A DNA stretch of 64,000 nucleotides from a virus. Location of the stretch: positions 72,788-136,787 of the IMG/VR virus record IMGVR_UViG_3300047489_000453; one strand, 5' to 3'. Numbering within the stretch: the stretch's first letter is position 1; each line of letters opens with the position of its first letter. Both the position numbers and the translations under genes were made by a program. Below are positions 2,435 through 63,630 of this stretch, one piece after another. Under the pieces are notes generated by a model. The model did not search any database. It worked only from the letters and a program-made list of their open reading frames with translations, and had not been told where the DNA came from.

Positions 2435-3169
2435 CTATAGGTTATTTAGATTGAAAAACTTTCGATATCTAGCGGCCTTAGCCTGGGTTCCAGTGTAAGT
2501 TACTCCTTTGTCGGTGAAGTCCGTAGCTGGATAATACCCAAACAAATTGTTTTTTGGCACTATGTTTGATTTAAACTTTGCCAGCAGGCCCTCATCTAAT
2601 ATTGCAAAGTTCTTATTGCAGTAGTTCATAACTTCTAAGTCTAAGCACCACATAAGCTTAGATGGTTTTAATAAGTCGCTTGCAACTTGATTTACCGTGC
2701 TTACGACATCTTTTCTAAAGAAATTTACCATCATGTTTTTAGGCCTGGTCTTATCTACAAAGACCCTTGGCAGCCTGTACTGGTGATACTTACTAAAGAT
2801 GTCGTTTATTCTTTTAATGTCTGGCTTTTTTATAGCAACAACGTCTACGTCAGTCAGCCCGACGTGGTCATCTACGACAGGCATTGAAAGCCACCTGCTT
2901 AGCGCGTAGTAGCCGTAGCAAGCTTTAGGTCTTTTATCCTTTTCTGGCAGCTCTATCTGTGAGAAGTTTGCGTTTATTTCTTCAAAAGTTATTGGGTCGT
3001 GGGTAATAAGTATGTCATTGTCTGAGCAGTACTTGTCTACAGATTTATTCTTAGGGCCTACAAACCTTAAAGAAAATCTGGCGTTTGGCCAAAACTTCTT
3101 TATAGAAGTGTGCCAATTTAGAAAAAACAAATCAAAATATACCTGCTCTGCTGCAGTGTGAAATATCAT
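2435..3169 (-). CDS. Putative GT-A fold glycosyltransferase
   Basis: LSRW...GLTDVDVV (DxD motif); lies in an operon with glycan enzymes. Confidence 0.5.
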   Translation of the reverse strand: MIFHTAAEQVYFDLFFLNWHTSIKKFWPNARFSLRFVGPKNKSVDKYCSDNDILITHDPITFEEINANFSQIELPEKDKRPKACYGYYALSRWLSMPVVDDHVGLTDVDVVAIKKPDIKRINDIFSKYHQYRLPRVFVDKTRPKNMMVNFFRKDVVSTVNQVASDLLKPSKLMWCLDLEVMNYCNKNFAILDEGLLAKFKSNIVPKNNLFGYYPATDFTDKGVTYTGTQAKAARYRKFFNLNNL

Positions 3170-32824: not shown

Positions 32825-33440
32825 AAAAATGAACCGGGTCTATCAAAACGAATGATTTAGTTTGATAGACCCGGCCTGGTATGACGCCCGCCCAGACAGA
32901 ATAGTTACAAGACCGAAGTCTTTTATTCCCTGAGGCCGAACGGCGTTTTTGAGAAGATCGCTCAGACCTGGCTTTAGTTGACTAGCAGGGTTGAAAGCTT
33001 ATAGCAGTAACCCAAGGCCAACAACACCAGCTGTTAGGTATAGTAATCCGCCGACGCTAATCGACAAACCTCTATACTAGCCGAACACCTTCTCCCCGTT
33101 AGATAATGCTACTTCACGGTTTAGGCAGCATTCTGACTAGGCGCTCTGGAACTAAGGGTATATCGAAACGAGTCAGACTAGTTATTAAAGGCTTGCGCCC
33201 TTAAAGGTCAGAATGAGGTATTCGAAACGGCCTAAGCCTTATCTTAGCTCTGATCGACCTGGAAGTAGGTAGGCAAACTTATTACTGCGTTGGCGCTACT
33301 TGCGAGTCGCACGAAACCCGGTAAGAGAGGTATGTGTTTTATACTCTCCGCAGGGTAAGGCAGCAATGAGCCAGCTACGTACTCAGACTGGAGACGTCAG
33401 ATTCTCCGGCCACCGGAACTAATTGCTCAGCTCCGATACG
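32825..33440 (-). ncRNA. Candidate large (~600 nt) structured non-coding RNA
   Basis: No ORF of 60 aa or more; GCAA- and UUCG-capped hairpins with G-U pairs on the minus strand; long-range 9-bp helix; terminal 14-bp stem with a U tract. Confidence 0.65.
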
Positions 33441-33445
33441 AAGGA

Positions 33446-51260: not shown

Positions 51261-52046
51261 TTATAAAGATATTAGAAAAGGATCGATGTCTGAGCCAAGA
51301 GCCTTTAAAGCCTCTTTAGCATATCCCCCAGATCTTTCTTTATCTGAAAGATACTCAAGGGCGCTTTCTCTAAAATCTTTATTGCTTAAAATAAACTTCC
51401 AACGCTCTAAGTAAGCTTCTTCGATCTTTAAGCTGCTTTTAAATCTAGTGTCGACAACATCGTCATCGTTAGTACGAAACTGAATGCTGGCCCTGTAGCG
51501 GCTTCTTGAACTTTTTAATTTTTCAATCTTTATGCCTGGATAGTAGTGTTTATAGAACTTTCTATTTAATGCGTTTTGCCAAGGATCTACAGGTCTTAGG
51601 TTTTCTATATTATCGTTTAGTGAGTTATTGTCTTTATGGTCTATAAATTTATTCGCTATGTCAGCTTTACTGTTATGCAACATGTAAACTATTCTGCTTG
51701 AAAAAAGCCGCATAGGTACCTTGTTTACGGTTAAATAAACTTGGTAGCAGTACCTGTCAATTGTGGCGCTTTCACCAGAAGTTCTAAGACTTCCAGCCGG
51801 CTTACCGGCATTTTCTGTGTTCCAAGCCTGAGACGTTTTGCTATTAGAGAAATGATGACTTGGTCTTTTTTTCCACCTAAGGCACGAAGGCGATGTTTTG
51901 TCGTAAATAAAGCATTCTTCCAAATACTCTACTGGAGGCATGTTCCTAGTTCTTATATTAAATTTTTTGTCTTTCTTTACGACTTGAACCCAATGTTTCA
52001 TGATGGCCTCCGGTGCCTTAAGTGAAAAGATATTAATGCTGCGCAA
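51261..52046 (-). CDS. HNH homing endonuclease (HNH_3-type with AP2-like C-terminus)
   Basis: CLRWK, AGKPAGS, RIVYMLH, IDHKDNNSLNDNIENLR, QNALN. Confidence 0.85.
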   Translation of the reverse strand: MRSINIFSLKAPEAIMKHWVQVVKKDKKFNIRTRNMPPVEYLEECFIYDKTSPSCLRWKKRPSHHFSNSKTSQAWNTENAGKPAGSLRTSGESATIDRYCYQVYLTVNKVPMRLFSSRIVYMLHNSKADIANKFIDHKDNNSLNDNIENLRPVDPWQNALNRKFYKHYYPGIKIEKLKSSRSRYRASIQFRTNDDDVVDTRFKSSLKIEEAYLERWKFILSNKDFRESALEYLSDKERSGGYAKEALKALGSDIDPFLISL

Positions 52047-55000
52047 ACTTTTCAGGTATACCCATGGATTTGCAGTCTTCTTTAGTCAATGGGATTGACC
52101 ACTTTGTAAAAACTTCAGTGGCTATTCCAAGATTGTAAGGACCGCTATCTCCACTCCTACGTGTACCGTCCAAGTGGCATGAATATATATCAACTTTATT
52201 GCTCATGCAAGAGGGTAATACGTTTTCTACCACCCAAGACACGCACTCATAAGGTACTTCTAATATTACAGCGTCGTGTACCTGCAATATTATGTCATAC
52301 CACATACCTGATGGAGCAGATTTTCTATACTCGTAAATATGGTCAAGAGCCCTAGACATTGCGTCAGCAACGCAGGACTGAATAGGGAAGTTCATGCTTT
52401 GTCTTTCATACTCAGCAATTACCGACCTATCCGTAGTAGGAGCAAACCTCCTGTATCTTCCAAACGCATTACATACCCAGCCTGGGGTCTTTACCCTTGA
52501 TTTACATTCTTGAAAATATACTGGTAGCGCAGGATACATGGCGACTAGACCATTTATTAAATCTTGAGCTTCATTGACAGATATCTCAACGCCTTCTTGT
52601 TTTGCTTTTCTGGCTGTAGACTCCGCTCCTTGGCCGTAAGCGTATCCAAATACCACAGCCTTGGCTGCTGTTCTCAAGCCGGACTTGCCTGCCTCTTTTA
52701 ATCCTTTCTTGGTTGGCGGGCAGGAGAGCTTAAAGGTATTAACAGCAACATTGCTATGGATGTCGTAATAGTCAGGATCAGACTCTGGAAGATTGGCTCT
52801 CATGACATGGTTAATCATGTTCTTATCGCCTGATTGCCAGGCCATAATAGCCAGTTCTGCACCTGTATAATCAGCCTCGACAAGAACATGCCCAGGTCTT
52901 GCGCTTATAGCAGATCTGAGAGGATAAGAGTATTCAAGGGACAAACTTGGACCGTGAGCAGAAAATATAGCCTTGTATCTGTCTTCTATAGTCTTGCCAA
53001 GGTTCTGCATATTGGGCCTGGAAGAAGACGCCCTTCCAGTTTCTTTGGTCTGCGAGAACATTGACCTGACTCTGTTATCAGAATGTATATAGGACAGCAG
53101 ACCTTTTTCGTATACAAGGTCGCCGTCGTCATCGACCATCTCCATCCCGTCTTTATCGCACTCAGGCGGCCTAAGCACGGTTGTCTTAAGGTAGTGCAGT
53201 GCCCTGACATCCCTTAGGGCTGACACAACTGGGTTTCCGTCAGACAGTATGGTTAGAGATTCTTTATCGGTGGCTGGGGAATATAAATGATCTATTCCTC
53301 TGCCTACAAGCTCAGACCAGAGCTTTCCCTTTGAGCCTGTTCCAGTGCTTTTATACGGCTGTATATTCAGGGAAACAGCCTCTTCAGGTCTTAGTCTGAT
53401 AGACGCCCCAGAGGCGTCTCTTTTACCTGAATACTTTTCACCAAACAGCAACTCTCTTTTATGAAATGTGCTAGACGCGTTGAAGTCCGGCCATTTTATC
53501 ATAGCTCTGAGCTTATCTAACAAGCTTTCATGCAAAGTATCATAAAGCTCTGTTAGTTCGCTTACTCTGGCTTGGTCTATTAGTATTCCCTTCTGTCTCA
53601 TCTCTATGAACGCTGGGTACGCTCTCATAGATAACCAGAAAGGAAGTCTACAGTTATTTCCGTACTTATCTTTGTCCAGCTTGCCTGGCTGATCTCCTAT
53701 GCCGTTGTAAAAGTCATATAATCTTCTAGTCACATCGGCATCATAGCAGCCGTAAGGTATAATAACCTCGTCAGGGCATTCTCCATAACCTTCAAGAGCA
53801 GAGTCTTTAATTCCTTTCTCTTTGCAGTGCTTTTTACGCCATTCGGTTACAGGGCCTTCCCATCTTGGCACGTTGCAGTAACGTACAGCCTGTTCTTCTA
53901 GGTTGAACACATCGGTCTCGTTTACAGCATGCGCCGCAAGCAGAGTGTCGAAGCCGCCCTCAAACTTGGTCTTTTCAAAACCAAATTTAAACGCCGCCAT
54001 ATCGTCATCAGAAATAACAGTAGAGAAGTCATCGTCATTTGGAGCTTCAAATATTGAAGTAAGATCCACTCCAAGCGACTTCATCCATGGTAAATCTGCT
54101 GTTAGATAGTGTCCTACTACCCTTACCTTTCTTCCATCTTTTGGAAAGAATATCTGATTAAGTATTTCCTTAAGCCTATCCATGCCGCCACCAAACACTA
54201 CTCCGCCTCCAGCTTTATTAACAACAATACTGCAGGCTACCTTTGGCTTCCAAGAAAGTTGAAGAGTTCTGACGTAGGCATTTTTTTCTGTAGGCCATTC
54301 TCCATTCCATTCTAAATCTATTGCTATTACAGGGTTAGGTTCATTTAGTATTTCTTCGGCTATTAAGGCTAGCTCGGCGTCTGACCTTATATCCATGTGA
54401 GATATGTCTGTTTCGTTAGATAGAAACTCTCTTCCGTTGCAAAGCGCTGCAAAGTGCTCTATTGAGGAGGACAACCTGTCAGAGTGTTCAGGATATCTAA
54501 GAACATATGACGGGTTAACAGCAGCTACTGCTTTAGCCACATGGGTTGTTCCGTCGATACAAGGAATCTCTATATCAAATACTTTACCGACGGCGTCTGA
54601 TAGTTTTTTATCCCTGCCGGCAACAGCTTTAAGAGCTTCATCCCCTGTCAGTAGAATGAAGTCAGGCTTAGCTAGCATAAGCTCTAGTTTTAGTATTGGA
54701 GAGCAATTATTTACCCATACCGATTTTAGTCCGTTTGAAGACGGGTCAAGGGTCTTATGCTTTATTACATTTGTAAGGTAGAAGTCTGCCTTATCAAAGC
54801 CGTGCTGTTCAAGCAGGCTCCACAAGTAATCTCCATTAATACCGTAATTTATACGTCCGGCATTTATATCCTGGTCGATAGGGGCTTTTCCTATGACCAT
54901 GTATTTAAACTTTCTAAACGGCCCAGGCTTGGAATTTGTAAGCCAGCACGCGCCAGGCACCATTCTTGCTTCCAGTATGTTTCCATTAAACATCACAGGA

Positions 55001-55242
55001 AGCATAAAAGTGTTGTCATATAGGGTGCGAAAATATAGGAAGTCAAGATAGGCATCAACCATCATCTCGTCTCTTTCGCCGGATCTAGACGGATTTGCTA
55101 ATAGCTCAGCCATTTGGCTAAAATCAGGTCCTGTTTTAGGGAACAGGCCTTTATGTTCACTTGTATAAATAAAAGGCCAGTCCTTTAATGGTCCGGCCTT
55201 TTCTATCTTAAGTATGAAATTATTAAAAGTAAGATCATGCAT
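52033..55242 (-). CDS. polA: Family A DNA polymerase with N-terminal uracil-DNA-glycosylase-like and 3'-5' exonuclease domains
   Basis: TGRASSSRPNMQN, ADYTGAEL, R..AK...FG..YG, QVHD; exonuclease DLE and YGCYD; UDG-like IGKAP, YLTNVIK, NPSY. Confidence 0.92.
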   Translation of the reverse strand: MHDLTFNNFILKIEKAGPLKDWPFIYTSEHKGLFPKTGPDFSQMAELLANPSRSGERDEMMVDAYLDFLYFRTLYDNTFMLPVMFNGNILEARMVPGACWLTNSKPGPFRKFKYMVIGKAPIDQDINAGRINYGINGDYLWSLLEQHGFDKADFYLTNVIKHKTLDPSSNGLKSVWVNNCSPILKLELMLAKPDFILLTGDEALKAVAGRDKKLSDAVGKVFDIEIPCIDGTTHVAKAVAAVNPSYVLRYPEHSDRLSSSIEHFAALCNGREFLSNETDISHMDIRSDAELALIAEEILNEPNPVIAIDLEWNGEWPTEKNAYVRTLQLSWKPKVACSIVVNKAGGGVVFGGGMDRLKEILNQIFFPKDGRKVRVVGHYLTADLPWMKSLGVDLTSIFEAPNDDDFSTVISDDDMAAFKFGFEKTKFEGGFDTLLAAHAVNETDVFNLEEQAVRYCNVPRWEGPVTEWRKKHCKEKGIKDSALEGYGECPDEVIIPYGCYDADVTRRLYDFYNGIGDQPGKLDKDKYGNNCRLPFWLSMRAYPAFIEMRQKGILIDQARVSELTELYDTLHESLLDKLRAMIKWPDFNASSTFHKRELLFGEKYSGKRDASGASIRLRPEEAVSLNIQPYKSTGTGSKGKLWSELVGRGIDHLYSPATDKESLTILSDGNPVVSALRDVRALHYLKTTVLRPPECDKDGMEMVDDDGDLVYEKGLLSYIHSDNRVRSMFSQTKETGRASSSRPNMQNLGKTIEDRYKAIFSAHGPSLSLEYSYPLRSAISARPGHVLVEADYTGAELAIMAWQSGDKNMINHVMRANLPESDPDYYDIHSNVAVNTFKLSCPPTKKGLKEAGKSGLRTAAKAVVFGYAYGQGAESTARKAKQEGVEISVNEAQDLINGLVAMYPALPVYFQECKSRVKTPGWVCNAFGRYRRFAPTTDRSVIAEYERQSMNFPIQSCVADAMSRALDHIYEYRKSAPSGMWYDIILQVHDAVILEVPYECVSWVVENVLPSCMSNKVDIYSCHLDGTRRSGDSGPYNLGIATEVFTKWSIPLTKEDCKSMGIPEKFAQH

Positions 55243-57961: not shown

Positions 57962-58702
57962 TTACAAAATTAATTTATCTGTATATATGCCCAGCTGTAC
58001 TCTGCTAGTTTTTATTCTCATTGACGCGTTTATGACAAAGGTGCTGTGTAAAGCCCCGCCCCAGGCTGCGTCATATATGTCAGGCCTAAGTGAATATTCT
58101 TCTATGGCCTCCATCATCACGTTGTCTGGAATAAGATCTTCCAGCTGCATCATTAAAAGTATGTTTACTTTGCATATGTCTGGTACTTTGCTTAAAAGCA
58201 CTATGTCTACATACGCTTGTTTTGAGTCTATGAATTTGCCGTAACTAGTCACGCTCATATCTATTATTTTTTTATACGAGTTAAATAGATTTGAGTATTC
58301 CTGGACTATGTCGGTTTTTCTTTCTAAGGCTAGCTTGATAGCTCTAGGCCCATGACAAGAGTTAGCAGAAGGAGGGCCTCCTATCGAGGCATCAAACTGT
58401 GCCCTTATAAGTTCTATGACTAAAAGCCCGGAAGACTCAGCTGACTTGGCTATTTTGGGCCATACAGGCTTATAGTCTTTACCGCTTTTATGTGTTATGG
58501 CTTTACCGTATTTAGGCTTTTCCGTTGACGTGCCGTCGTAGTGCGGAAGATGCCTGGCGCCATAATCACAAATAAAGCCATTGTGAAGTTTGTTGTACCT
58601 GTTCATAAAGGCACAGTAAACTCTTCTGGATTCGGCTGATAGCATCTCTATATTAGTCATCAAACGCTTCTTCCATAACTTCAATACCTTCAATTGATTC
58701 AA
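57962..58702 (-). CDS. Hypothetical replication-block protein
   Basis: 246-aa ORF between the two helicases. Confidence 0.6.
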   Translation of the reverse strand: MNQLKVLKLWKKRLMTNIEMLSAESRRVYCAFMNRYNKLHNGFICDYGARHLPHYDGTSTEKPKYGKAITHKSGKDYKPVWPKIAKSAESSGLLVIELIRAQFDASIGGPPSANSCHGPRAIKLALERKTDIVQEYSNLFNSYKKIIDMSVTSYGKFIDSKQAYVDIVLLSKVPDICKVNILLMMQLEDLIPDNVMMEAIEEYSLRPDIYDAAWGGALHSTFVINASMRIKTSRVQLGIYTDKLIL

Positions 58703-60183
58703 GAGGTTTTTTATTGGATGTAGGAGGTACTTCTTTCCAGCCCATCTTTTTATACGACATTCTTCGACTTCTACTTCTGTTTAAGAATGAGAAATCAAAG
58801 TTGTCCATGCAATCTATTACAAGACCGTGGTTCTTGCCGGATTCGTCGTGTTTTCTGGCCACTCTACCTGGCGCCTGAATATCGACAATCTTGCTTGATC
58901 TGGCGTCTGCCCTTATAAGCACCGATAACTGGGCAAAGTCTACTCCTGTGCTCCACACGTCTGTGCTTATTACTTTTTTTATAGATCCTTTTTCAAAACC
59001 AAGCCTCATACCTTCCCTTCTGGCTGGTGACATTAATGGTTCCGTGGCTGGGTCAATCAGCCCTTTCTTTACGTACCGCTCATAGTCAACTGTGTCCATT
59101 GTGTCATAGCACAAAGAAAACTCTGGAAGGGCTTGTTTAAGATATACAGCGTGTTCAACTGATTTGACCATGATAAGGACTTGTTCATCGTCGCCAAATT
59201 CTCTGGCCTTGGCCGCTATGGCGTTATTCCTATCCTCATTGCGCCATATGCCCCATCTTTCTTTTGGAACACCTGAAAGATCTCCGCAAGGGTTTACACA
59301 ATCAACCTGTATCCACTCGACTCTTATTGGAACAACCAGGTTAGAATCCACCGCAGTACCGTATGACATTTCAAATATTCTTTGGCCAAAGATTGCTTCT
59401 AACAAAAAATGAGCACCGTCCATTCTTCCGTCTGGAGACGCTGTAAAACCAAACTTTCTAGTCTTCAGGTACTTGCCTATTTCGGCTTGATACGAAGGTG
59501 CAACAGCTTCATGCGCCTCATCGTATAGAAGTATATCAGCGCATCCATCCCCGGAGTGGCTTATCTTATGCATGCTGTCGGCAGTTATAACTGTTACCCT
59601 GCCCCATCTGTTACTGCCGCTACCTACCATGCCAATAGTTGGTACAACCTTTGCCAGTGAAGTGTAGAGTCTTTTCATGACGTCTACTCTTCTGGTTACT
59701 ATGTGTATTTTTGCGTTTGGGTACGCCAGGCATATGGCAGAGAACATGAATGATTTGCCAAATCCGGTTGGGGCAACTATAAGCCCGTCCCTGTTTGACA
59801 TTATTGCAGCCAGGCAGTCGTCCTGTCCGTCTCTAAGGGTTATCACAGAAGTCAGCTTATCTATGTCTACAGCAAATGCTGCGCTGTTGTGGTAATCCTT
59901 ATCGAGGTCTGTAACGTTGACAGAGATACCGGAGGATTTAAACTCGTGAATTAGCCTTGGCGTAAAACCTCTTGGACATACAAGATTATTTTTTTGGTCG
60001 TACTTAAATACTGTTCTAACTTCGGACGAAAAATTTCCGCTTTTTCTAAACCCAGCATGGTTAAATGACACATGAGTATAGCACAGCCTGCTTTCTAGTC
60101 TTTTCTTTATGTCTAATGGCAGCTCACCGGTTGGCGAAGATACCTGTAGCAAGGAGTTGCCTATAGTAAAGTTTACCTCCATG
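58653..60183 (-). CDS. Superfamily 2 DEAH helicase (UvsW/XPB-like)
   Basis: APTGFGKS, DEAH, TAS, TGVD, QAPGRVAR; start probably MEVNF at 60183. Confidence 0.88.
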
Positions 60184-60260
60184 TCGCATCCTTCCAATAA
60201 TAAGTATTGAAATGGTAATGGCAATCTATTGACTTAGGTGGGAATAATTATAGACTTAAT

Positions 60261-60336
60261 GCAGCGATTGCTGCACCGCCACCACCTGCGGTGTGAAATA
60301 TCCCCAACTGATTGCCGTCGGTTGGGGAATTTTTTT
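60261..60336 (+). ncRNA. Candidate ~75-nt plus-strand small RNA
   Basis: TTGACT-N16-TAGACT promoter at 60229-60256, two hairpins, then a terminator with T7. Confidence 0.5.
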
Positions 60337-60441
60337 GATCTCGTTTGAGCATTCTATTTCGACTAAGAACGTTAGTCAACGTGGTTAAAAATATTTGTTC
60401 ATAAAAGTTTTAAACCGTTTTAACCAAACCTTTTACATTTA

Positions 60442-61440
60442 CTACTTTTTTATAAAACTAGTAAATGCTTTAAGATCTTCTCTGTTTTTGAAAAAATAAG
60501 AATAGTCAAAAAGCCTTTCCATCCATGGGTTTGGATAAGGATAAATACAATCAAGCCAGGCTAGCCTAAGAAACTTTATGAAATACTTTGTTATTGTTTC
60601 AATTGGCCACTTGTTAAAGTCCATTCCCCATTTATCACAAGCGTATTTAAGTATAAAACAACCTGGGTCAGCTATTTTATTACTTAATAGCTCAGAACTA
60701 TTCTTGTAACTATTGAAGCCATACATCTCGGTTCCGGCCCAGCATATAAGGGCTTCTATTCTTCTTCTGTCTTTATCGACTGTACCTACGTTTCCACATA
60801 GGCCTACCCACGAGAAAAGTTTTGATAACCTGTCGGGCCTGTTGGGGTCTACAAACCATCTGGGGTCGCATATTTTTCCGATTAACGATCCAAGAATATG
60901 TGGCCTTATGTCATCGATGAATGACATATATTTGAATATAGGATGCTTAACAATAAGGGCTTCTATACTGTCATCAATATCTTTTAGCTTTTTTAAAGTA
61001 CTGACTGACAGGCATCCATTCTTTTTAAACTTAGGTTCAATGTTAAGAGCGGACTCTGATAAGTTTGACATTTTATAGACTAGTGACTCGTCATATGTCA
61101 TTTCATGCCATCCTCCGAGTGAAGGAGGCAGCGTGCACAGCCTCATTCTTATCAAAGAACTTTCAGGCCTGCTCTTTTGATGCATGATAGGCGACGCTAG
61201 CTGCAGTGAGTCTATACAGCCTTCAGCTTTAGCATCGTACAGTAACGGTATTATTTTATGGTTAATCGGAGCGGCAAGTACTCTTACCAGCTTAAACCTG
61301 CCGCTCGATTTTAAAGCGTCTACGAATTCTCCCGTACTATCGCTGGTTATTTTTGGAAGTTTATCTCCATCAATAGCCCAAACATTACCGGCCTCATCGG
61401 CTGTAATCTTTAAGTACGAGCTGTCTATTATCTTTGCCAT
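60442..61440 (-). CDS. IS110/Nop-fold-like protein (Tas/Transposase_20-like), N-terminal RuvC-type residues not evident
   Basis: HPIF..MSFI....ILGSLIGKICDPRWF...SKLFSWVGL and KYFIKFLRLAW. Confidence 0.55.
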   Translation of the reverse strand: MAKIIDSSYLKITADEAGNVWAIDGDKLPKITSDSTGEFVDALKSSGRFKLVRVLAAPINHKIIPLLYDAKAEGCIDSLQLASPIMHQKSRPESSLIRMRLCTLPPSLGGWHEMTYDESLVYKMSNLSESALNIEPKFKKNGCLSVSTLKKLKDIDDSIEALIVKHPIFKYMSFIDDIRPHILGSLIGKICDPRWFVDPNRPDRLSKLFSWVGLCGNVGTVDKDRRRIEALICWAGTEMYGFNSYKNSSELLSNKIADPGCFILKYACDKWGMDFNKWPIETITKYFIKFLRLAWLDCIYPYPNPWMERLFDYSYFFKNREDLKAFTSFIKK

Positions 61441-61443
61441 TAA

Positions 61444-63630
61444 TCACCTATATAGTGATATAGTATGATCGCACATTCTTTCAATGGCTTTTTCATGACT
61501 AACTATAAGAACCTGCAAGCCAGACGATTGTGACATGGCTCTTAGCCTGTTAAATGCCATCTCAAGGCATTCTATATTATCATCGTCCAGGCCAACAGTT
61601 GGTTCGTCTAGTACCAAAAGATTTACTCCTGATGCTATTCCAAACTGTACTGCAAGCCTAAAGGCCAGAGCTAGCACTACTTTTTCACCGCCTGAAAGCC
61701 TGGCTGCGGGCAGGTCTCGTCCGTCACTGAACTTAGCCCAAAACATAAGCTCACTATCTGAGTATACCCTAAACGGCGCATTAAAGTCTTCAAGATAGCT
61801 GTTCATTTTTGCAACAGTTTGTTTAAGGTAATTAAAGGCAACCTTTTTAGGAAGGTTAGATTTATGCATCAACTCTTTAAGTGATTCTAGGTAATTTTTT
61901 ACCTCCATGTTTGTCTTAGCTTCCATAAGACCTTCTGCTATTTTTGTTCTTCTTGTCTCAAGAATTTCTATTGTATCTGAGCATCCTTTTATAGCCTCCT
62001 CAGTTCTTATTATCTCGTTGTTATTGCTTCTCACTACATTAATCAAATTAGTAAGCTCTTCTTTAAAACTTATTAATTCCTCGTTAGAAGCCTCTAGACC
62101 GGTATCAGTAATATCCTTTTCAATTGTTTCTTTATTACGCCTGAATATATCAAGACGGCCCCGTTCAAAGTTAATAGTCTTATTTAGTTCATTTATAATT
62201 AAAGAAGCAGTATCGTACTTGGATTTTGTAGACTGGGCTTTATCCAAGGCCACCTTGCAGTCATCACTTGATACTGACGGAGGGTCGGTTAGCTTTGAAT
62301 TTATATCAGACAATGACGCATTTAAACCGGCAATAACAGTGTCTAGTTTTGTTTTTGAGGATAAGTAGTCAGCGTACTCTTTATCAAATTTTCTACTATC
62401 GGCAAAAGCTGCCTTTAGTAAGTCAATCTCTTTGCTTTCCTCATCCACAGAGCTCTGAAGAAGAGATACAGCCTTATCAAGACTGTTTCCTGTAGATTGA
62501 CATACAGGGCACTGTTTATTGGTTAATAACTCTTTTATGCAGGCTTTCTTTGCCTCGTGGGATCCTAGTTTACTATTGTAGTTATTAAAATTGGCTCCAA
62601 CTGCTTCGATATAGGTGGAAGGCTTTGCAGGTCCTTCGCCTAGGGATTCAAGATTCTTAATAGCAGTTTCTATGTTTGACTCTACTATTTTTTTCCTGGC
62701 TATAGCGTCGTCATAAAATTTCCACTCTGATACAAGTGATATGTTGTTATTTATGACATCTATAAGAGCAGAGTAAGACCCGTACTCTGCCACCAGTACG
62801 TCAATATTGGGGCCTGTAGAGGCGTCAAAAACTATACCTAGGTCTTGTAAAGCTTTGCTGGCATTATCATTGAGTACTTTTATAGAAGCCTCAGCGTCGC
62901 TTATTCCTTTAATAAGAACTTGAATAGAGGTGTTATTTTTTATGACTTTGTCAACGATTGCTAGCTCTGTTACAAGGCCGCTATCGTCTCTCTTTAAAGC
63001 CATTAGGCCTACAAGTTTTGTGTTAAGAGAATCCAGCAGCAGCTTTCTTTCTCTTATACCCGTTTCAACATCGCTTATTGATTCTGAGAAGATTGGTATA
63101 TTTATTTTTGTAATTGATTTACCTATCTCGTCATAGCACAGTTCAGCCTTGCTGAGCCCATAGAGGGATTGAAGGGCTGACAGCCTGTCAGACTTTGTGG
63201 CTGTGAACACCTCGAACATCTTCCACTGATCAACAAATATATAATCGTTTAGAATGTCCGGGCTAATACCTATTAGGCCTTCTATGGCAACTTTTATTTC
63301 TTTATCAGAAGTTATAGGTTTTGAGCCGTTTATTGATAATGATTTTTTATTAGGCCTTAGCGATCTAAGTATAGTGGAGACGTCTCCATTATTTGAAAAT
63401 GTTAGTTCTATAAAGCTATCGTCTTTCTCTGAGCAAGTTTTGCTTATGTTATCAAGCATAACCCCTTCGTTTCTTCTGAAGTCTCCCGTCAGAGCCGAGT
63501 ATATGGCCTTGATAGCATTTGATTTTCCTGAGCCGTTAGGGCCGCTTATTGCCACTATGCCATTAGGTATGGACCAGTCTAATTCTTGATGCTGACAGAA
63601 GTTTTTTAGCCTTAATCTTTCAATCTTCAT
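61444..63630 (-). CDS. sbcC: SbcC/Rad50-like SMC ATPase
   Basis: GPNGSGKS, Q-loop, CPVC zinc hook, LSGGE, LVLDEPT, SH. Confidence 0.92.
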   Translation of the reverse strand: MKIERLRLKNFCQHQELDWSIPNGIVAISGPNGSGKSNAIKAIYSALTGDFRRNEGVMLDNISKTCSEKDDSFIELTFSNNGDVSTILRSLRPNKKSLSINGSKPITSDKEIKVAIEGLIGISPDILNDYIFVDQWKMFEVFTATKSDRLSALQSLYGLSKAELCYDEIGKSITKINIPIFSESISDVETGIRERKLLLDSLNTKLVGLMALKRDDSGLVTELAIVDKVIKNNTSIQVLIKGISDAEASIKVLNDNASKALQDLGIVFDASTGPNIDVLVAEYGSYSALIDVINNNISLVSEWKFYDDAIARKKIVESNIETAIKNLESLGEGPAKPSTYIEAVGANFNNYNSKLGSHEAKKACIKELLTNKQCPVCQSTGNSLDKAVSLLQSSVDEESKEIDLLKAAFADSRKFDKEYADYLSSKTKLDTVIAGLNASLSDINSKLTDPPSVSSDDCKVALDKAQSTKSKYDTASLIINELNKTINFERGRLDIFRRNKETIEKDITDTGLEASNEELISFKEELTNLINVVRSNNNEIIRTEEAIKGCSDTIEILETRRTKIAEGLMEAKTNMEVKNYLESLKELMHKSNLPKKVAFNYLKQTVAKMNSYLEDFNAPFRVYSDSELMFWAKFSDGRDLPAARLSGGEKVVLALAFRLAVQFGIASGVNLLVLDEPTVGLDDDNIECLEMAFNRLRAMSQSSGLQVLIVSHEKAIERMCDHTISLYR
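63374..63389. repeat. Dispersed 16-bp palindrome copy (15/16)
   Basis: GTGGAGACGTCTCCAT inside sbcC. Confidence 0.85.

Follow-up and report, generated by a model that had tools for sequence, protein, structure and literature searches.

In the last 64 kb of the 136,787-bp viral record IMGVR_UViG_3300047489_000453 (IMG/VR; estimated to be 67% complete), a gene for a 332-amino-acid (aa) protein, here called X, lies between an SbcC-like gene and a helicase gene. This whole stretch of 64,000 nucleotides (nt) is referred to as the window. In our assessment, X is rather probably a diverged TasR-like protein, array-less and nuclease-dead, which binds nucleic acids as part of a phage recombination module, with a separate, cis-antisense small RNA (sRNA) encoded beside it. 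In its predicted structure, X has the RuvC-like plus Nop-like architecture of IS110 and Tas proteins, and it is nearest to TasR rather than to IS110, both by fold scores and by NCBIfam matches. An original prediction, made from the sequence alone, had described an open reading frame (ORF) of this length with IS110/Nop-type motifs between SbcC-like and SF2 helicase genes. It was found at 60442-61440 on the minus strand, and it contains KHPIFKYMSFIDDIRPHILGSLIGKICDPRWFVDPNRPDRLSKLFSWVGL and KYFIKFLRLAW. The gene and its predicted parts are:

60442..61440, minus strand: X gene, 332 aa, with its stop codon at 60442-60444
61102..61440, minus strand: X residues 1-113, RNase H/RuvC-like domain (b-b-b-a-b-a-b-a by DSSP; core at about 10-99, plus a conserved loop to 113)
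60952..61095, minus strand: X residues 116-163, short helical hairpin where Tas and Nop5 proteins have their coiled coil (helices 116-132, 17 residues, and 146-163, 18 residues)
60445..60945, minus strand: X residues 166-332, Nop/Transposase_20-like helical domain (Z 8.9-9.2 over 170-173 residues against the Nop domain of TasH)
60853..60867, minus strand: family signature D192-P193-R194-W195-F196 (D in 152, P in 153, R in 152 and W in 135 of 153 relatives)

The AlphaFold (AF2) model of X built from 149 sequences had a predicted local distance difference test score (pLDDT) of 96.2 and a predicted template modelling score of 0.92, while a seven-sequence model reached only pLDDT 72.9. When the PDB was searched with Foldseek, TasR, IS621 and ISCro4 accounted for each of the 11 top chains listed (E ≤ 2.1e-3), and the next one listed had an E value of 0.15. 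The E values were 2.5e-4 for TasR (9MTY), 4.6e-4 to 1.6e-3 for IS621 and 2.1e-3 for ISCro4, so that the structural check suggested earlier, against IS621 and TasR, gave a match to both. Alignment with VIA-align superposed X on TasR (9mty_B) with Z 12.6 and a root-mean-square deviation of 5.2, over 255/294 residues (model residues 8-327). The corresponding values were Z 9.2 over 258 residues for IS621, Z 8.6 for ISCro4, and Z 9.1-9.2 over 171-173 residues for TasH (model residues 115-330). An unbiased VIA scan of 48,161 PDB representatives ranked TasR (12.6), TasH (8.9) and ISCro4 (8.2) above all others, which scored at most 6.8. Generic RNase H folds matched the N-terminal domain with Z 5-6.8. 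No Nop5, Nop56 or Prp31 chain was among the 50 matches listed from the wide VIA scan, which were filled by N-terminal domain matches. The IS110/Nop fold proposed for X is thus borne out by the model, with TasR as the nearest relative.

At the sequence level, X had no Pfam match even at E ≤ 10. It matched the NCBIfam model NF052498 (TIGR_Tas_endo) over residues 153-217 with E 2e-4 and 21.4 bits, below the curated cut-off of 100 bits. The same model was matched by 40/66 aligned members at E ≤ 0.01, with 2.1e-9 as the best value, and every score seen was far below the cut-off. No other NCBIfam family was matched by any of the 66, hence no IS110 model was. X also matched the PHROG 'transposase' phrog_4285 (E 0.006, residues 159-224), as did 11 of the 66 aligned members. 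One of the 66 matched PF02371 (E 0.028). PF01548 was absent from the record. A sequence profile (alignment A2) searched against the PDB found TasR 9mty_A at E 0.012, a match that was lost with the deeper A4 profile. The matches of X to phrog_4285, NF052498 and, by profile, TasR 9mty_A all fall in the Nop-like domain, and in a protein language-model atlas X neighbours clusters carrying PF02371. The fold score for TasR (12.6, against 8.2-9.2 for the IS110 recombinases), together with NCBIfam matches to TIGR_Tas_endo only, puts X closer to TasR than to IS110.

The RuvC-type metal-ligand positions are not conserved acids, as revealed by column counts over 153 relatives:

X position 15, end of strand 1: D in 68 and A in 41 of the 153 relatives
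X position 56, after strand 4: G in 135 and A in 17
X position 80, strand 5: E in 80 and Q in 54
X position 93, helix 3: E in 65

These counts agree with the earlier remark that X has no obvious DEDD set. A counterpart of the IS110 serine was not found in the same relatives either, as no column from 216 to 226, after the GL-P motif, reaches 60% for any residue. In IS621, the catalytic serine (S241) stands shortly after that motif. Conserved residues in the RuvC-like part and just after it are K11, W21, R53, G56, N60, P84, P92, R100, S107, G109-G110, W111, H112 and D/E118, of which G109 and G110 are invariant (153/153). Those of the Nop-like part are H166, P167, F174, D192-P193-R194-W195, D198, P202, G213, W234, P259, F262, R265, W295, F311 and F317. 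When X is aligned by profile to TasR, the motif DPRW(F/Y)VD of its family falls at the GD..IDRF loop, with a six-residue insertion, and the GIG helix-hairpin-helix motif of TasR is replaced. Because no canonical position is a conserved acid in the 153 relatives, X is read as nuclease-dead. It would resemble in this PateTasR and CsTasR, described in Xu et al. 2026 (bioRxiv 10.64898/2026.09.09.750476).

A word-indexed search found only six close relatives, with 50-61% identity. A profile search of 1.84 billion cluster representatives returned 736 proteins at E ≤ 1e-3, 459 at ≤ 1e-10 and 36 at ≤ 1e-30; the X family is large and strictly viral, with 736 clusters at 50% identity. Among the best 150 of the 736 matches, nearly all are 280-370 aa long, and no longer (fused) form was found, which is weak evidence. 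The 50,697 GenBank phage records held no tblastn match to X, P0021 or P0008, no blastn match to the locus, and no match to the SbcC-like protein at 1e-6. X likewise had no match at E ≤ 1e-3 in the BFVD fold library and none in PADLOC. In prokaryote genomes (one for each of 185,579 species), no relative was found with alignment A1 and a single one with A6, on a 13-kb contig of a metagenome-assembled genome. X is present as one copy in the 136,787-bp record. DNA of the phage occurs in lake, freshwater and estuary metagenomes from 14 studies, and to our knowledge no member of the phage group carrying X has been cultured. The carriers make up a large clade of uncultured, distantly T5-like phages.

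X has a fixed place in these genomes. Almost all genes of the window are on the minus strand, where the order is SbcC/Rad50-like ATPase, X, gap, SF2 helicase, 246-aa ORF, DnaB-like helicase, primase and family-A polymerase. The two genes that flank X are:

61444..63630, minus strand: SbcC/Rad50-like ATPase gene, directly upstream of X (Pfam SMC_N 2.5e-20, AAA_23 3.5e-15, and SbcC_Walker_B 7e-4, the last below its cut-off)
58653..60182, minus strand: SF2 helicase gene, UvsW/T5 D10-like (ORF open to TTG 60224; Pfam ResIII 6e-14, Helicase_C 5e-8)

We compared 82 loci encoding X relatives (L001-L016 and L023-L088, duplicates between the two sets included). The order SbcD, SbcC, X, gap, helicase and an ORF of ~240 aa was seen in 8 viral and 8 metagenome loci from a close alignment search. 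The 66-member alignment yielded another 66 viral loci, on contigs of up to 226 kb. In 64 of them X is immediately preceded by an SbcC relative, and the remaining two begin at a contig end. The helicase is downstream of X in 65 of these 66. The stop codon of the SbcC-like gene and the start codon of X are 3 nt apart in the window, and in 69 of 78 loci an ORF of at least 400 aa ends between -20 and +48 nt from the start of the X match. A conserved ORF of ~165 aa, p165 (e.g. L077:3947-4444; all among L023-L088), separates X from the helicase in 49 of the 66 loci; no Pfam, NCBIfam or PADLOC match was found for it. Most relatives have their SbcC, X and p165 genes packed together, leaving no intergenic space. 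The window's clade lacks p165, which was not found in the incomplete 137-kb record either; its slot is occupied by a promoter-containing gap, with an sRNA in four lineages.

No IS ends are present at X. From its single copy and its fixed place between SbcC and helicase, X is a domesticated core gene and not an insertion sequence (IS), and the earlier view of it as such, without IS ends, holds. In phage T5 (NC_005859 annotation), the gene of D14, a RusA-like Holliday junction resolvase, starts 3 nt after that of the SbcC-like D13, so X sits in a recombination slot.

The gap between X and the helicase holds a predicted transcription unit of its own, with a helicase promoter facing it:

60259..60336, plus strand: predicted sRNA of ~78 nt, with promoter, three hairpins and terminator, antisense to the helicase 5' leader
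60229..60256, plus strand: promoter-like site of the sRNA, TTGACT-16-TAGACT (L002, L016 and L014 share TATTGACT and the -10 region)
60261-60274, plus strand: hairpin 1
60275-60292, plus strand: hairpin 2, with an 8-nt loop, followed by a 7-8-nt linker
60301-60328, plus strand: terminator hairpin of 12 bp, followed by a run of seven U (T7)
60351..60379, minus strand: sigma-70-like promoter of the helicase operon, TTGACT-17-TAGAAT

The sRNA folds with -35.9 kcal/mol, and its z score is -5.2 on the plus strand vs -3.2 on the minus strand. Several of its G-U pairs are A-C mismatches on the other strand, making the fold specific to the plus strand. Homologues with the same promoter boxes lie downstream of X in L002 (X 50% identical), L016 (48%, partial X) and L014 (34%), and they fold alike (z -5.0 to -7.3). 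Four pairs of the consensus show compensatory changes, all in the terminator stem. The unit of promoter, hairpins and terminator noted in the original prediction is therefore real by its z score and its covariation. In metagenome contigs of other strains, the sRNA segment alone aligns at ≥ 85% identity.

Among the fetched loci encoding X relatives, the sRNA was found in four distinct lineages only. It is absent from L003-7, L012-13 and L023-29, and a scan of L030-L088 with a regular-expression signature did not find it. It is absent as such from L001, L010 and L011 (X 50-52% identical), where a remnant is kept in the helicase leaders (L001:5006-5180, L010:1274-1500, L011:4006-4180). There, the sense sequence CUGAUAUUYUCACC lies inside a CCAAG...CUUGG stem, and a stretch of 9-10 nt in this segment differs between L010 and L011. 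When viral contigs were scanned with the pattern of the sRNA core, five places matched, one a true copy (the L002 contig) and four GC-rich chance matches.

The helicase promoter is conserved in nearly all close loci, and a TTGAC(T/A)-N17-TA(G/C)AAT box is found in the gaps of L001, L002, L003-5, L006/7, L010, L014, L016 and L023-25. The strict pattern TTGAC[AT]-N16-18-TA[TGA]A[AC]T occurs at three sites in the 136,787 bp, namely 59917 (+), 60229 (+) and 60379 (-), and strong host-type promoters seem to be rare in this phage. The last two sites form a convergent pair around the sRNA, that at 60379 being the sole strict match on the minus strand. The helicase mRNA would start near 60344, with a leader of ~160 nt to which the sRNA would be fully complementary. 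In its simplest reading, the sRNA would regulate the helicase gene as a cis-antisense RNA. Hairpins 1 and 2 keep their stems from lineage to lineage but differ in their loops; cis-antisense loops are complementary by construction, so they may vary in this way. Two matching runs labelled RNA-Seq are probably DNA and were kept as contigs only, thus they give no transcript evidence.

Possible trans targets of the sRNA amounted to five exact 11-mers, compared with 3.9 ± 2.9 in shuffled sequences, which is not significant. An exact 12-nt copy of the linker (GTGTGAAATATC) lies at window positions 3156-3167, over the start codon of ORF 2435-3169, a count compatible with chance. The cyanobacterial Rfam family NsiR1 was rejected as an identity for the sRNA, its match (60280-60336, hairpin 2 plus terminator) having 27.7 bits, below the gathering score of 39, and E 0.009. 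It probably reflects only the hairpin-plus-terminator shape. No Rfam family matched at gathering score anywhere in the window.

Searches for a guide array or an embedded RNA covered 3-4 kb on either side of the relatives and this record, that is, 67% of the genome. Tandem Repeats Finder detected no dual-repeat TIGR array (alternating 8-12-nt repeats with ~9-nt spacers) in the window. A scan for periodic, exact 7-mers (at least 4 copies, period 25-90) detected no array either, whether across the 137-kb record or at the fetched X loci. Beside X, only hairpins with loops of 4-11 nt were seen, no dedicated stem-loop finder having been used. Inside X, a 25-locus subgroup showed no zone of suppressed synonymous change, with the fraction of synonymous differences between 0.45 and 0.68 per 15-codon window (mean 0.575).

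The gap RNA had also been likened to a single TIGR unit with the pattern CCA-N9-TGAAA...CCA. The pattern is indeed present at 60282-60306, but it is not conserved. Three loop bases and the 3' arm of hairpin 2 (GCGGUG), which is invariant, make up the N9, the second 'spacer' falls on a conserved segment of the terminator, and L002 and L016 lack the first CCA; for these reasons the TIGR unit was not upheld. The 137-kb record has no tandem target of the two putative spacers at ≤ 3 mismatches.

Several other explanations of X were weighed against this evidence. There is next to no probability that X serves as transposase for an IS110-family element resident at this place. Its phrog_4285 'transposase' match (E 0.006) and its fold match to IS621/ISCro4 would fit, but X itself has no PF01548 or PF02371 match, the DEDD residues are not conserved and no conserved Ser follows the GL-P motif. 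A mobile element is further contradicted by the lack of ends, by the single copy, which starts 3 nt after SbcC and has its neighbours unchanged in 64-65 of 66 loci, and by the near absence of X from the 185,579 prokaryote species genomes. An active structure-specific nuclease, resolving Holliday junctions or R-loops with a non-canonical site made of D/E6, N60, H112 and D/E118, is decidedly unlikely. Such an enzyme would suit the position of X, analogous to T5 D14 after D13, the RuvC-like fold, and the conserved polar residues with the GG-W-H motif (G109 and G110 153/153, H112 139/153, D/E118 148/153). However, the four RuvC-type metal-ligand positions are G, A or variable, D6 precedes strand 1, and H112 and D118 belong to the linker that joins helix 3 to the helical hairpin. 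True resolvases, too, are matched weakly (Z 5.1-6.0: RuvC 6s16 5.1, RuvX 5.5-6.0, poxvirus resolvase 5.7).

Guidance by RNA could take two forms. X might still work as the dead-RuvC TasRs do, which are RNA-guided repressors according to Xu et al. 2026 (bioRxiv 10.64898/2026.09.09.750476). Its guide would come from a distant locus, from a phage or host transcript, or from replication primers or R-loops, and at defined DNA sites X would deliver SbcCD or the helicase, or impose a block. All of the closest structural relatives are RNA-guided, and the region that matches Tas and IS110 is the conserved D-P-R-W ... G-L-x-P segment. The Arg of the TaTasR IDRF motif (R198) contacts box D according to Xu et al. 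2026, its equivalence to the X residue following from our profile alignment, and the same text leaves an alternative guide source for array-less viral TasRs open. Nevertheless, we regard this as unlikely, as neither an array nor a conserved RNA was found beside X in the fetched loci, most relatives leave no space between SbcC, X and p165, synonymous change is not suppressed inside X, and the GIG motif of TasR is replaced. It is very improbable that the adjacent 78-nt RNA itself is a single TIGR-like or bridge-like guide of X, as the original prediction had speculated. The RNA is real and conserved, adjoins X, occupies the slot of the p165 gene of most relatives and varies in the loops of hairpins 1 and 2 while keeping its stems, and CCA-N9-UG...CCA-N9 fits in the window and in L014. 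Yet it occurs in four lineages only, L001, L010 and L011 keep just the remnant, and the first CCA is missing from two of the four. The 9-nt segments expected to vary are an invariant stem arm and a conserved terminator segment, no tandem target exists at ≤ 3 mismatches in 137 kb, and cis-antisense pairing explains the variable loops. Loops of 8-11 nt and 4 nt, moreover, cannot hold two 8-12-nt spacers plus a loop, going by Faure et al. 2025 (PMC12045711) and Xu et al. 2026. Co-occurrence with orthologues had been named as the test of this idea, and since the RNA is not conserved beside most of them, the idea largely fails by that measure.

We thus favour a nuclease-dead, TasR-like binder. X would have lost its nuclease chemistry and become a fixed part of the SbcCD-helicase module for recombination and replication, and judging from the 3-nt spacing it would be made together with SbcC. 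It may act without cutting, as a binder or scaffold for structured nucleic acid such as RNA, R-loops or branched DNA. The binding surface would combine the Nop-like face (DPRW loop, GL-P motif) with the GGWH/N60/R53/R100 face of the dead RuvC domain, and binding may aid SbcCD and/or the UvsW-like helicase in recombination-dependent replication. Transcription of the sRNA would run towards the helicase promoter, and the RNA probably adjusts the expression of the helicase, in the manner of lambda OOP, by pairing with the leader and/or by interference of the convergent promoters.

Some points weigh against this account. D/E6 (115/153) and N60 (143/153), along with H112 and D/E118, lie in or beside the RuvC-like domain and could form a non-canonical active site. 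The array scan depends on exact 7-mers and would miss stem-loop arrays, and a guide for X may be encoded elsewhere. The role as binder or scaffold is suggested by predicted fold and gene context. As for the sRNA, its expression is predicted from promoter and terminator, and its patchy distribution makes its role dispensable in most relatives.

The characterised relatives of this fold (IS110, TasR/TasH/TasA, Nop5) all work through a guide RNA, and the branch of X has kept the fold and would have lost both nuclease and array. A bolder version, which we hold to be a long shot, makes X the subunit that holds the guide in an RNA-guided system without an array, one that is part of phage replication and steers SbcCD and the UvsW-like helicase to defined DNA sites. 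The RNAs would then be origin or primer transcripts, R-loops or, in the window's clade, the adjacent 78-nt RNA. If true, RNA guidance would here serve recombination-dependent replication, and not defence or transposition. The fixed neighbourhood of X gives the question of array-less TasRs a testable direction, either a guide-free role in replication and recombination or an unconventional guide source. A conserved antisense sRNA between strong convergent promoters is a second lead, of an ordinary kind of regulatory element.

Among the neighbouring genes, the helicase probably starts at ATG 60182, with GGAAGGA just ahead as ribosome-binding site, and its tblastn matches are UvsW of P-SSM3 and other phage helicases. 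The polymerase gene is located as follows:

52033-55242, minus strand: family-A DNA polymerase, 1069 aa, nearest to T5-like phages with 24-27% identity

Matches of the polymerase to T5-like phages span at most residues ~194-1039, and those to Lysinibacillus phages begin at ~113, leaving the first ~110-190 residues unexplained. The 246-aa ORF 3' of the helicase (57962-58702, minus strand) has no Pfam, NCBIfam or PADLOC match. The closer relatives L023-L029 keep it in this position, and L036, L038, L079 and L087 do so with weaker conservation. GC skew shows no inflection around the X locus and so gives no support for a replication origin there. A search for tRNA and tmRNA genes found none. Another ~600 nt, at window positions 32830-33445 (minus strand), are without ORFs and end in a perfect 14-bp hairpin (32834-32874) followed by a T-run. 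This region, the 600-nt RNA mentioned in the original prediction, may be a large structured non-coding RNA. Rfam gave nothing for it, either at gathering score or at E ≤ 1, and its DNA was not matched in the five records of relatives that were compared, at least two of which are fragments.

The nearest known counterpart of X is one long branch of compact viral TasRs, without a coiled coil and without a detectable array, described in Xu et al. 2026 (bioRxiv 10.64898/2026.09.09.750476). According to that text, the branch sits in densely packed viral genomes, and the source of its guide, maybe an alternative guide RNA, is left open. X resembles this branch in its RuvC-like, helical-hairpin and Nop parts within ~330 aa, in the lack of canonical catalytic residues, in a short C-terminus without the Y/H loop, and in a tightly packed viral locus with no room for an array. 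In the same source, the coiled-coil helices of TaTasR are K109-D138 (30 residues) and A142-H168 (27 residues). The hairpin of X (17 + 18) is much shorter, so X may belong to the array-less branch, and the X family was probably glimpsed in this preprint. Unlike the TIGR-Tas reports, X is fixed in an SbcCD-helicase module; SbcC, helicase and replication are not mentioned in the text of Xu et al. 2026 that was accessible. This fixed recombination context, together with the clade-specific antisense sRNA, is what is added here. Unlike TasR, the X family has its GIG motif replaced, carries the family-specific DPRW(F/Y)VD insertion, and reaches 21 bits against a 100-bit cut-off. TaTasR (PDB 9MTY; Faure et al. 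2025, PMC12045711) shares the architecture of X, with 255/294 residues superposable. Only TaTasR has the four conserved acidic RuvC residues, the long coiled coil and a 36-nt tigRNA from a dual-repeat array.

IS110 recombinases (IS621 8WT6/8WT9, ISCro4 9T56) have the same order of RuvC-like, coiled-coil and Tnp/Nop parts as X, matching with Z 8.2-9.2 over 258-264 residues. The '...D.RF...GL.P' motif of Pfam PF02371 is common to both. Unlike IS110, X has no conserved DEDD or serine, is not mobile, is not flanked by non-coding ends or a bridge RNA, and does not reach Pfam-level membership. For the sRNA, the closest parallel is the OOP RNA of phage lambda, a short (~77 nt) RNA with its own promoter and intrinsic terminator, antisense to the 3' end of the cII mRNA. 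The predicted sRNA, known here from sequence, has a similar length (~78 nt), its own promoter, an intrinsic terminator and a pairing fixed by position; unlike OOP, it covers the 5' leader of the helicase gene. X, finally, is placed like T5 D14, 3 nt after an SbcC gene in a related replication and recombination module. It is unrelated to D14 (160 aa, RusA) in fold and size, and it has no recognisable active site.

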